This document shows positions 8,396 to 10,160 of a DNA stretch of 64,000 bases, one piece after another. Numbering within the stretch: position 1 is the stretch's first letter; every line of letters starts with the position of its first letter. Origin of the DNA: Owenia fusiformis (lineage: Eukaryota); assembly GCA_903813345.2 (NCBI GenBank), contig CAIIXF020000001.1, positions 26,660,001-26,724,000 of the forward strand, written 5' to 3'. Below the pieces are notes generated by a model, which searched no databases, had not been told where the DNA came from, and worked only from the letters and a program-made list of their open reading frames with translations. A program made the position numbers and the translations under genes.

Positions 8396-10160
8396 TACAA
8401 GACATTATATCAGAAGAAGAAACTAAAAATAACATAAAAAGTGACAGAATTATAGTTGGTGGGTTTTCTCAGGGAGGAGCAGTGGCGTTATATTCAGCGC
8501 TGACTACAGATAAGCCACTAGCAGGAATTCTGGGTCTGAGCACCTGGCTGCCTCTACACAAGTCTTTCCCTCAGGTACGAACACATTAATCTCATGTTAT
8601 GATTCATAAAAAATAAATCAGCTGTTATTTGATATTTATATTTTAGAATTAATTAAATGTAGGCTAATTAGAAGTGGTTGATGTATCCAAGGTGGGCTGG
8701 GTTTCACATATATGACTATGTGTAACCTTTCGCTACAAATGATAGATAAAAACAAATAAACCTATGAAATTGTATGAAATTAGGCAAATAAAGCTTGTTA
8801 CTGATAAGACAATATTTCAAAAACTAAAAATCGCTCTCTCATGCTGGTTACTTCTACTCTCATAAAAATTGCATACCTTGGATTATTCATCTCTATCCCA
8901 TTTTCATAAAAATTCAAAGAACTTAGCAATTTTTGCTATATTATTATGCTGTATTTATGTGGTTTAGTTATGATGTAAAGTCTTCAACGTTGTAGGGGTG
9001 TAAGGGTAACAAAGCTACTCCCATACTGCAGTGCCACGGTAAATCAGATCCCGTTGTTCCTTTCACAATGGGCAACATGACAGCTGACCTCCTAAAGTCT
9101 TTCACTAGCAACCATGAGTTAAAATCTTTTAATGGTTTAGGACACAGTTCTAGTCCACAGGTAAACTTCAGTGTAACAAGGGACTGTTTCAAAAACTTCA
9201 TTTGGCCACTTTTCATGGTTTTTCCAAATTTGTGTGGACAAATACTTTTTCTGAAACAGGCCCAAAAAAGGATCTCAAAAGTCAAGATGTTTCATCTATT
9301 ATGATAAACATCCTGTCATTGAGATCTCTATGTATGTTTTATTTTAACATATTCCTCTCTCTTTGTCCGGCAGGCAGCCATTGCTAATCTGAAAGTGCCC
9401 ATGCTCCAATGCCACGGAACTATGGATCCAATGGTTTCATATGAAAAGGGGAAATTAACTGCTGCAGTATTAAAAACCATGCTAGAAAATCATGAGTTCA
9501 AATCCTATGAATATATGGGCCATAGTTTTTGTGAACAGGTACGCTAGTATAAGGCACTTGTTTTTTCTTCAGCCCAGTGGATCATTTTTACCCTATATTT
9601 TCAATTTACCAAATTCCAACTTCATCGCATTTAGAGAAATTCAAGACTGTTCAAAATATACCTGTACCATTTTTCGTGATTTTCACGATTACTCATGGTA
9701 AAATCAAATTTTCAGTGTGATACTTGTAGAGCTGCTGCATGGGGTAATGACTGTAAAGGGGTCCCCTCTACTCAAAGAACCCATTATTTTATCTGTGTAA
9801 TTATTGTCTTATGTAGCACAATGGGTAGGATGGGTGTTTTGGTAAAAAATAAAGTCTATCCTTCCTAAATAATAATTTAATACAAGTTTTCCAATTCCAA
9901 TTTTCAAATTTCTTAATATGTGTAAATTTTCTTTAAAGCATGTTGCCTTATATGCATTATATTGTATGCAATTAATAAAACTGATCAAGCACAAAGAAAA
10001 TGTATAAAACCTCAAAAGTTGATGTAATAAATTCAAAATGAGCAATTGCATGCAACACAAGACATTTAATTCCCAATGTAAATAACAAAAAATGTATTTT
10101 TACTTGTAGGAGATGCAGGATGTCCAAGTATTTATAGACAAAGTCTTACCACATGAATGA
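8396..10160 (+). CDS. LYPLA1/2: Acyl-protein thioesterase / lysophospholipase (LYPLA1/LYPLA2, APT family), 3' exons only; 5' exons lie upstream of the window
   Basis: Exons 8396-8574 (..[33 protein letters not shown], with the GFSQG nucleophile motif), 8996-9160 or 9374-9538 (LQCHGxxDPxV..GHS) and 10110-10160 ([16 protein letters not shown]). All have AG/GT boundaries and consistent phase, and the order matches the known APT1 layout. Confidence 0.93.
8996..9160 (+). CDS. LYPLA1/2: LYPLA catalytic Asp/His exon, variant A
   Basis: ttgtag|GGG...CAG|gtaaac, 165 nt, phase 0-0: [55 protein letters not shown]. Confidence 0.88.
9374..9538 (+). CDS. LYPLA1/2: LYPLA catalytic Asp/His exon, variant B
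   Basis: Pyrimidine tract, then ggcag|GCA...CAG|gtacgc, 165 nt, phase 0-0: [55 protein letters not shown]. Confidence 0.88.

Follow-up and report, generated by a model that had tools for sequence, protein, structure and literature searches.

Mutually exclusive, tandem-duplicated exons each carry two catalytic-triad residues in an acyl-protein thioesterase gene of Owenia fusiformis

We report that an acyl-protein thioesterase gene of Owenia fusiformis carries a genuine pair of mutually exclusive exons, as observed within a listing threshold of three reads per splice joint and at low read depth. The pair (exons A and B) is one ancestral exon that was duplicated in tandem within a gene of the APT1/APT2 (LYPLA1/2) type, and the observations as a whole are very probably best explained by exclusive use of the two copies, which yields two enzymes of 227 amino acids that differ at residues 157-211. 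APT1 and APT2 are depalmitoylases that act through a Ser-Asp-His triad, and vertebrates diversify this activity by means of separate paralogs. Duplicated exons used in a mutually exclusive manner are rare, and those that have been studied are usually functionally important; to our knowledge, few documented cases swap part of the catalytic centre of an enzyme. Within the 55 residues swapped here lie the Asp and His of the triad, three residues that line the acyl channel by alignment, and a site of regulation in human APT1, and the isoforms may therefore serve as a ready-made experiment on the substrate choice and regulation of a depalmitoylase.

The stretch of DNA analysed (64,000 nt, hereafter the window) holds the 3' half of the gene; the upstream exons were absent from it in a tblastn search with both annotated proteins. 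The features of the gene are collected in Table 1. The first exon present, the constitutive exon S, encodes the nucleophile elbow GFSQGG, with Ser121 of the 227-aa product, and ends in ...FPQ. Its RNA depth was 18-25x, and 14 reads of run X19 carried upstream-exon sequence that stopped exactly before position 8396. Exons A and B are both free of stop codons, preceded by AG, followed by GT, and in phase 0-0, and the reading frame is continuous from S through either A or B into the terminal exon T, whose 3' UTR reaches at least position 10200 (RNA depth, 22-30x at 10156-10200). The 3' splice site of exon B has a strong polypyrimidine tract, and the tract 5' of exon A is weak. In the window, tblastn with the two annotated proteins matched exon S and the terminal exon once each and revealed no further copy of the duplicated exon. 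The original prediction, which described two tandem 165-nt exons of phase 0-0 with canonical splice sites, 213 nt apart, between a Ser exon and a terminal exon that are each single-copy, thus agrees with the coordinates and anatomy found, the single-copy status being that within the window.

Table 1. Features of the thioesterase gene within the window (position 1 is the first letter of the window)
Feature	Positions	Strand	Details
Constitutive exon S	8396..8574	+	start phase 1, end phase 0; from translation and tblastn
Intron S-A	8575..8995	+	421 nt, GT..AG; joint 8574>8996
Alternative exon A	8996..9160	+	165 nt, 55 aa; catalytic Asp174 and His206
Intron A-B	9161..9373	+	213 nt, GT..AG
Largest hairpin of intron A-B	9180..9263	+	arms 9180-9209 and 9234-9263, 30 nt each, 77% complementary
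Alternative exon B	9374..9538	+	165 nt, 55 aa; same catalytic Asp174 and His206
Intron B-T	9539..10109	+	571 nt, GT..AG; joint 9538>10110
Terminal exon T, coding part	10110..10160	+	16 codons and TGA; common to both isoforms

The common origin of the two exons is evident at the protein level, at which 24 of 52 residues aligned by BLASTP are identical (E 9e-19); an ungapped count gives 24 of 55, the figure first obtained by manual alignment, and nucleotide identity is 91/165. Both exons match the Pfam family PF02230 (Abhydrolase_2) at the same profile positions, 154-203/204, with bit scores of 48.3 (A) and 45.1 (B), exon S scoring 68.4 (cut-off, 23), and both align to residues ~160-215 of the human APT1 and APT2 chains. 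The duplicated unit spans strand beta7, the Asp loop, helix E, strand beta8, and the His loop. QCHGxxDPxV and GHS are retained in both exons, as had been predicted for the catalytic Asp (in HGxxDPxV) and the catalytic His (in GHS), and these residues align to D174 and H208 of APT1. S121, D174, and H206 lie on invariant columns of an alignment of 80 sequences, and the Ser-Asp-His triad is complete. Both isoforms are modelled confidently as APT1/2, with the APT-type alpha/beta-hydrolase fold: the mean AlphaFold2 pLDDT was 95.0 for the A isoform and 93.8 for the B isoform, with values of at least 92 throughout the exon region, and the top Foldseek matches of both were human APT1 and APT2 (TM 0.91-0.96, rmsd 1.1-1.4 A, 51-58% identity). 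Because each isoform keeps Asp174, His206, and nearly all of the highly conserved positions, we infer that both are folded, active serine hydrolases.

Exclusive use of the exons was observed in two stranded raw-read RNA runs from one study, of which ~6% each was analysed. Joint S>A (8574>8996) was covered by 9 and 8 reads in the two runs, S>B (8574>9374) by 6 and 4, A>T (9160>10110) by 20 and 6, and B>T (9538>10110) by 5 and 4; all four joints were GT..AG with the first mate on the minus strand, and each of A and B was accordingly spliced directly to both shared exons in both runs. Neither A>B (9160>9374) nor S>T (8574>10110) reached three reads in either run, among 62 junction reads overall. 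Up to two A>B reads per run would go unlisted at this threshold, which leaves room for double inclusion in up to about 10% of A transcripts and in a larger share of B transcripts, and the short reads do not phase whole molecules. NCBI annotation lists CAH1773992.1 (A) and CAH1773993.1 (B), each of 227 aa and identical except at residues 157-211, and holds only A-only and B-only products, with none that contains both exons or neither. The proposal that one gene makes two enzymes was thus borne out by the two annotated products and by all four predicted junctions, with the 9160-9374 junction that would have spoken for double inclusion staying below three reads in both runs. Exon B accounted for 19 of the 62 junction reads (~30%) and exon A for ~70% in the two runs. 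No regulation is demonstrated by these data, because the A:B ratios did not differ between the two runs (Fisher p = 0.39 and 1.0). Two further data sets, X1 and X2 (Logan contigs whose "RNA" label was a guess), were set aside, as they resembled DNA and carried no information on splicing: their word depth was flat at ~12-13.5 over introns and exons, they contained no splice joints, and they had a Nextera-like adapter end.

Exons A and B have diverged far from each other. Synonymous differences are saturated (pS 0.746) and pN is 0.371, third codon positions are identical in 20 of 55 codons, and a dN/dS of ~0.13 is a rough figure only with dS saturated. Conservation reaches 90% or more in 13 columns of an alignment of 118 homologs, and each exon retains 12 of these, with Q, H, G, D, G, and H among them. 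Read variants comprised three synonymous and two non-synonymous changes in A (K>T at exon position 3 and F>Y at position 23) and a single, synonymous one in B. Both copies look selected by these sequence measures, and the earlier description as an "old duplication under selection" is supported in part, as regards selection, by pS 0.746 versus pN 0.371 and by the 12 of 13 conserved columns in each copy.

The divergence is asymmetric. The best identity of exon A was 38/53 (72%), to coral proteins P0057/P0274, and that of exon B to any of the 118 homologs was 30/55. A search of 1.84 billion representatives with exon B gave 163 matches at E <= 1e-3, the best with 56% identity over 43 residues, and no close B-like exon was found among these representatives, whose clustering at 50% identity could mask one. 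In the exon-level tree, the end branches were 0.34 for A and 0.97 for B. Exon A is the conserved ("canonical") version, and exon B the derived, fast-evolving one. The exon-level tree (55 columns, 120 rows) lacked resolution, with neither A nor B inside a starred clade; a clade of A plus B was not rejected by the AU test (p 0.5), and the constrained tree was 0.57 lnL better. Tree and test would be compatible with a lineage-specific duplication, without proving it. Among the best 120 of 2662 homologs, the Owenia pair was the only isoform pair with at least 95% identity upstream and less than 80% in the exon region. P0129 and its cluster mates were considered as B orthologs and rejected, being more A-like overall on manual reading despite a Lys at position 25.

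The two isoforms are probably distinguished by their acyl-binding channels and their regulation, as judged from human mutants and sequence alignment. Gapless alignments to human APT1 and APT2 (chains 5sym_A and 5syn_A) placed exon positions 20, 25, and 28 at L176, F181, and L184 of APT1 and at M178, F183, and L186 of APT2, so that by alignment the channel residues are Val176, Met181, and Met184 in A and Met176, Lys181, and Leu184 in B. A preprint describes these positions as channel residues and reports that APT2 activity is abolished both by F183R and by F183E (10.1101/2020.06.18.157545). Position 25 is W, F, L, I, or V in 116 of 117 close homologs and K or R in none of the 117; the Met of exon A is also non-canonical there (0/117). 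Of 136 more distant members of the family that were found with exon B, 12 have Lys or Arg at this position, and Lys therefore need not abolish activity. The catalytic His is followed by different residues in the two exons (HSSS in A, HSFC in B), with the Ser at the position of human APT1 S210 replaced by Phe in B; S209 and S210 are reported to be phosphosites in the dimer interface, and S210L to be activating (PMC5919757). Exon B has Phe where 95% of homologs have Ser and Tyr where 86% have Gly, and 31 of the 55 residues differ between A and B. The A isoform may thus be a canonical long-chain depalmitoylase/lysophospholipase, and in the B isoform the channel may be more polar or narrower, and dimerisation or control by phosphorylation may be altered.

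How exclusion is enforced was considered from the introns and the reading frame. A frame- or NMD-based mechanism does not apply, because an exon of 165 nt is a multiple of three (55 codons), and transcripts with both exons or neither stay in frame; frame cannot enforce exclusion here. The U12 5' splice consensus is RTATCCTT. The introns are all GT..AG with 5' splice sites gtacgaac, gtaaactt, and gtacgcta, none with the U12 consensus, and U2/U12 incompatibility is not the mechanism. Pairing between introns of the docking/selector type gave no duplex signal, 32, 83, and 47 of 100 dinucleotide shuffles being at least as stable. In the 213-nt A-B intron, a TTAAC motif that resembles a branch point was read from the sequence ~25 nt before exon B, and this does not suggest steric exclusion. 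The A-B intron is, by prediction, strongly folded into three hairpins (MFE -53.4 kcal/mol, z = -4.49; 0 of 200 shuffles as stable), and the flanking introns gave z = +0.41 (S-A) and -0.13 (B-T); among 94 background windows of the same size, z was <= -4.49 in one and <= -3 in three. With up to three mismatches allowed, the window contains a single occurrence of the arm of the largest hairpin, and no Rfam match was found over 8200-10300. The flat depth of X1 and X2, which is not a copy number, did not point to any multi-copy element within the A-B intron. The A-B intron was also the only one with RNA read cover (2-5x in both runs), depth being 0 over 8620-8939 of the S-A intron in both runs and 0 over 9644-10091 of the B-T intron. 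If it is retained, the open reading frame from 8996 ends in frame at 9302-9304. Our best guess, held with low confidence, is that the structured 213-nt intron may be poorly spliceable, an idea drawn from a single sequence when 1 to 3 of 94 background windows are equally structured; transcripts in which both exons are defined would in that case retain this intron, reach the stop at 9302-9304, and undergo degradation.

Several other readings of these data were weighed. That A and B are independent cassette exons, with transcripts containing both or neither at appreciable levels, is very improbable: although double inclusion and double skipping of 165-nt exons would both preserve the frame, junction depth is low with joints below three reads unlisted, and reads cover the A-B intron at 2-5x, no A>B or S>T joint was listed against 4-20 reads per exclusive joint, the counts of S>B (6 and 4) and B>T (5 and 4) are about the same, the annotation has A-only and B-only products alone, and a protein with both exons would presumably repeat the core strand-helix-strand unit. 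It is also quite unlikely that exon B is a tolerated alternative that is impaired or non-catalytic, whether as splicing noise or in a regulatory or dominant-negative role, with its channel blocked by Lys181. Its long branch (0.97 versus 0.34 for A), the lack of a close relative (at most 30/55 among the 118 homologs and 56% among the representatives), the Phe and Tyr at the 95%-Ser and 86%-Gly columns, and the Lys where F183R and F183E abolish APT2 activity would fit such a role. However, exon B is in frame, is joined to both flanking exons, and contributes 19 of the 62 junction reads of the two runs together, with pN at 0.37 versus a saturated pS of 0.75; of the 13 columns with conservation of at least 90% it retains 12, along with both catalytic residues, its model has a pLDDT of 93.8, its sole read variant is synonymous, and a basic residue at position 25 is natural in 12 of the 136 distant members.

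The isoforms might instead be biochemically equivalent, the duplication having been kept for expression control or through neutral subfunctionalisation of splicing signals. The shared catalytic residues and fold and the similar A:B ratio in the two runs are consistent with equivalence, which we nevertheless find doubtful, since 31 of 55 residues differ, among them the S210 equivalent and each of the three channel positions that the exon encodes, and A and B have diverged asymmetrically. Exclusive splicing of two differing enzymes, our preferred reading, can be carried further to an old, selected switch in which a single annelid gene would do the job of the vertebrate APT1/APT2 paralogs: A would be a canonical long-chain depalmitoylase; B, through its channel Lys and the lost regulatory Ser, would serve a different substrate class under different regulation; and exclusion would follow from a structured, essentially unspliceable intron with a stop on retention. 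This extended version is tentative, and we think it unlikely to hold in full.

Both isoforms are already known from the public annotation, and the phenomenon is of a known kind. Within the literature searched, no paper was found that describes duplicated or mutually exclusive exons for any APT/LYPLA gene, in agreement with the original prediction, which knew of no described case in this family. A close parallel is COQ-2, for which nematodes, flatworms, annelids, and molluscs have a homologous, mutually exclusive exon pair, 6a and 6e (PMC7434440). In both cases, two homologous exons of the same length are swapped in the core of the enzyme, the exchanged segment borders a hydrophobic tunnel for the substrate beside the active site (by alignment in the APT pair), one exon is pan-eukaryotic-like and the other derived, and annelids are included; unlike the APT pair, COQ-2 is a polyprenyltransferase, and its exon choice experimentally switches between ubiquinone and rhodoquinone and occurs in several phyla (PMC7434440). 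The APT pair, in contrast, was found only in Owenia among the best 120 of 2662 homologs and has two triad residues inside the swapped exon. It adds an annelid example beside COQ-2, one in which the reading frame is unable to explain exclusion.

Tandem exon duplications of the KHK type likewise have equal length and phase, are used exclusively, and keep catalytic residues in both copies (the catalytic Arg of KHK), whereas the Owenia pair belongs to an invertebrate APT gene; "LYPLA", "thioesterase", and "hydrolase" have no occurrences in the main text of a survey that covers KHK-type duplicated exons. Vertebrate APT1 (LYPLA1) and APT2 (LYPLA2) resemble the Owenia isoforms in being two depalmitoylases of the same family and fold that differ around the acyl channel, but they are encoded by two separate genes and differ over their full length, whereas in Owenia 55 residues of one gene vary by splicing. 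As in enzyme exon pairs kept apart by steric exclusion, the short intervening intron of the Owenia pair is apparently not removed on its own, and the unusual feature of this intron, compared with those pairs, is its strong predicted secondary structure.

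In the annelid Owenia fusiformis, an APT1/APT2-type thioesterase gene on the plus strand carries two homologous exons, A and B, between the constitutive exon encoding the catalytic Ser (exon S) and the terminal coding exon (exon T), and RNA reads join each copy to both neighbors. Raw reads from two stranded RNA-seq runs of the same study, X18 and X19 (about 6% of each run), were examined over the region 8300-10200. The first mate lay on the minus strand in all reads of the gene, which fits a plus-strand gene and the usual stranded library. All four junctions expected for exclusive use of A or B were present in both runs, with 4-20 reads each. 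A joint was listed only if at least 3 reads from at least 2 start places carried it, so that two or fewer A-B reads per run would stay unlisted; at this limit of 3 reads, and at low depth, neither the A-B joint (9160>9374), which had been proposed as the check on exclusivity, nor a joint skipping both exons (8574>10110) was found in X18 or X19. Pooled over the two runs, A-type joints accounted for 43 and B-type joints for 19 of the 62 junction reads, a low total of short reads that cannot phase whole molecules; B is therefore a substantial isoform, at about 30%. The A:B ratio did not differ between X18 and X19 (Fisher p = 0.39 and 1.0). For exon S, the acceptor is fixed by 14 X19 reads in which upstream-exon sequence stops exactly before 8396. 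Two further runs of assembled contigs, X1 and X2, both behave like DNA and were set aside as splicing evidence.

Exons, splice joints, annotated products and repeats of the thioesterase gene and the window
Feature	Position	Strand	Description
Exon S	8396-8574	+	frame enters A/B from here; peptide ends in FPQ
Exon A	8996-9160	+	165 nt; 55 open codons; AG before, GT after
Inter-exon intron A-B	9161-9373	+	213 nt
Exon B	9374-9538	+	165 nt; 55 open codons; AG before, GT after
Exon T (last coding exon)	10110-10160	+	frame continues from A/B, then stop
Joint S-A	8574>8996		X18 9 reads, X19 8 reads; GT..AG
Joint S-B	8574>9374		X18 6 reads, X19 4 reads; GT..AG
Joint A-T	9160>10110		X18 20 reads, X19 6 reads; GT..AG
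Joint B-T	9538>10110		X18 5 reads, X19 4 reads; GT..AG
CAH1773991.1			partial product; exon A
CAH1773992.1			227 aa; exon A
CAH1773993.1			227 aa; exon B
133/476-nt repeat units	2071-2339, 2990-4220, 5706-5973		within 1-7000
Microsatellite-like array	4671-4885		12/24-nt period
Tandem array	10230-11135		66-nt unit (periods 124, 190 also scored); about 12 copies; 82-86% match
Tandem array	39475-39827		60-nt unit; 5.9 copies; 98% match
Tandem array	62736-63499		20-nt unit; 39 copies; 79% match

The sequence agrees with the predicted anatomy of two tandem exons of equal length with canonical splice sites, and both are phase 0-0 because the frame runs in from exon S and out into exon T. Their peptides are homologous (24/52 identical, BLASTP E 9e-19; 91/165 nucleotides identical), both match positions 154-204 of the Pfam profile PF02230 (A, 48.3 bits; B, 45.1 bits; cut-off 23), and both match residues about 160-215 of the human APT1 and APT2 chains. 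In tblastn searches of the window with the annotated products, the Ser and terminal exons gave one match each, as expected for the single copies originally proposed; the duplicated exon did not occur a third time in the window, and the exons upstream of exon S fall outside it.

The pair is a textbook case of tandem duplicated exon substitution, a class described in PMC9741552. Searches of the accessible literature found no duplicated or mutually exclusive exons described in the APT/LYPLA family, in line with the original prediction. The closest analogue is the COQ-2 exon pair 6a/6e of helminths, annelids and molluscs, in which same-length homologous exons are swapped and exon choice switches the product (PMC7434440). 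In both systems the swapped exons are of the same length and line a hydrophobic substrate tunnel (in Owenia, a putative one placed by alignment), and one copy is canonical and the other derived. Unlike that of COQ-2, the Owenia swapped exon contains two triad residues; the COQ-2 switch is experimentally shown, whereas the Owenia pair is known from sequence, RNA joints and models. The public annotation holds three consecutive products, so both isoforms are already deposited as gene models; CAH1773992.1 and CAH1773993.1 are identical at 196/227 residues, with all differences within residues 157-211. No literature description of the two isoforms was found in searchable sources. The Owenia protein of this gene (P0005/P0273) has an N-terminus, encoded upstream of the window, that begins MGANSS, with Gly2 and Ser6, a pattern that we take to resemble an N-myristoylation signal. 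Human APT1 and APT2 have Cys2 in place of Gly2, and Cys2 is reported as the palmitoylation site of APT2 (10.1101/2020.06.18.157545).

Between A and B, pS has reached saturation (0.746, with 20/55 third positions identical) against a pN of 0.371; the duplication therefore cannot be a recent one, and each copy appears to have been held under constraint at the protein level. In this respect the predicted old duplication under selection is supported. Among 118 homologs from many animal phyla (from the best 120 of 2662 matches), each exon keeps 12 of the 13 columns that are at least 90% conserved, including the invariant Q, H, G, D, G and H; the deviating column is Y45>F in A and S52>F in B (numbered by exon position, codons 1-55). 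Divergence, as judged from these alignments, is asymmetric: A is nearer to 75 of the 118 homologs and B to 29, with 14 ties, and mean identity is 48.5% for A vs 45.0% for B. A is up to 38/53 identical to coral proteins and is similar to Capitella (HGKSDP, LGHSS); for B the best identity with any of the 118 is 30/55, and no match above 56% identity was found for it among 1.84 billion representatives. In a 55-column tree, the end branch is 0.34 for A vs 0.97 for B. The simplest reading of these sequences would be that the duplication arose within the annelids, on the line to Owenia, and that B then changed faster; the pair may also be older and have been lost elsewhere. The tree does not resolve the placement of A and B, their sisterhood is not rejected (AU test, p 0.5), and no A/B-type isoform pair was found in other species among the best 120 of 2662 matches. 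Few variants appear in the reads: in A three synonymous changes and two replacements, K>T at exon position 3 and F>Y at 23, and in B one synonymous change.

In the Toxocara canis model KHN80369.1 (P0130) the homologous segment of 54 residues occurs twice in tandem, the copies being identical, and in an ENA protein (P0195) a truncated copy precedes a full one. They may reflect a duplication of this same exon in other animals, with gene prediction reading across both copies; alternatively, an assembly or annotation artefact may have produced them. Several short genomic-contig predictions matching exon B (P0124-P0129) consist of the exon alone plus read-through from Val (GT...), which suggests that other animals, too, have this segment as a separate exon with these boundaries. 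Lys at position 25, seen in Owenia exon B, also occurs in P0129 and its two cluster mates.

AlphaFold2 models of the isoforms are confident, with a mean pLDDT of 95.0 (A) and 93.8 (B) and values of 92 or more over the exon region; they superpose on human APT1/APT2 with TM 0.91-0.96, and the exon region forms a strand, the Asp loop, a helix, a strand and the His loop. A and B differ at 31/55 residues, with 9 differences inside the 14-residue helix (manual count). Alignments to human APT1 (5sym_A) and APT2 (5syn_A) are gapless over the first 38 positions; positions 18, 20, 25, 28, 50 and 52 align with APT1 D174, L176, F181, L184, H208 and S210. Owenia residues 174, 176, 181 and 184 are numbered as in human APT1, and two extra residues past the helix in human APT1 shift the numbers of the His and following Ser to 206 and 208 in Owenia. 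According to 10.1101/2020.06.18.157545, L176, F181 and L184 line the palmitate channel of APT1, and F183, L186 and T187 that of APT2, whose thioesterase activity is abolished by F183R and F183E. The APT1 L176/F181/L184 positions are V/M/M in A and M/K/L in B by alignment. At position 25, 116/117 close homologs have W, F, L, I or V and none of the 117 has K or R; of the 136 more distant members retrieved with exon B, 11 have R there and 1 has K. Human APT1 S209 and S210 reportedly are phosphorylated and lie within the dimer interface, and S210L raises activity (PMC5919757); the S210 position is still Ser in A and is Phe in B. We infer that the two isoforms would prefer different acyl chains or substrates and be regulated differently. 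The changes in B do not show the B isoform to be inactive.

Reading frame cannot enforce exclusion, because a transcript with both exons or with neither keeps the frame. Every splice site follows GT..AG, no 5' splice site is U12-like, and inter-intron duplexes, candidate docking/selector sites, were no better than shuffles. The 213-nt length of the inter-exon intron and its TTAAC motif, which lies about 25 nt upstream of exon B, do not suggest simple steric exclusion. This intron folds into three hairpins, the largest at 9180-9263 (MFE -53.4 kcal/mol, z = -4.49, 0/200 shuffles as stable), vs z of +0.41 for the S-A and -0.13 for the B-T intron; among 94 same-size windows elsewhere in the window, z was <= -4.49 in 1 and <= -3 in 3. 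It is also the only one of the three introns with read cover, 2-5x in both X18 and X19 vs 0x over 8620-8939 and 9644-10091. When it is retained, the frame from exon A reaches a stop at 9302-9304, upstream of the B-T junction. Transcripts with a stop upstream of an exon junction are generally degraded (NMD), and intron-retaining transcripts would therefore be degraded. Exclusion could, with low confidence, have its basis in an A-B intron that is poorly spliceable, and transcripts defining both exons would then give unproductive RNA. The same hairpins could be a degenerate inverted-repeat insertion. The polypyrimidine tract is weaker before exon A, the major form, than before exon B, which hints at active regulation by additional factors. 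Elsewhere, the 213 nt at 28341-28553 fold much more stably than their shuffles (z about -13) and are probably a long inverted repeat.

The intron directly upstream of exon S holds, at 8300-8363, a very high-copy short repeat (units about 37-43 nt, motif GTTCCACTT), with contig word depths of 13,264 and 22,091 in the two DNA-like runs vs about 12-13 in the flanks; RNA reads are abundant on both strands there, with many joints that go back and many variant units. Further upstream, at 1-7000, the long intron before exon S is filled with repeated 133- and 476-nt units and recurring ORF fragments. The tandem array of 66-nt units begins 70 nt past the stop codon, RNA depth is 22-30x at 10156-10200, and the array probably lies inside the 3' UTR.
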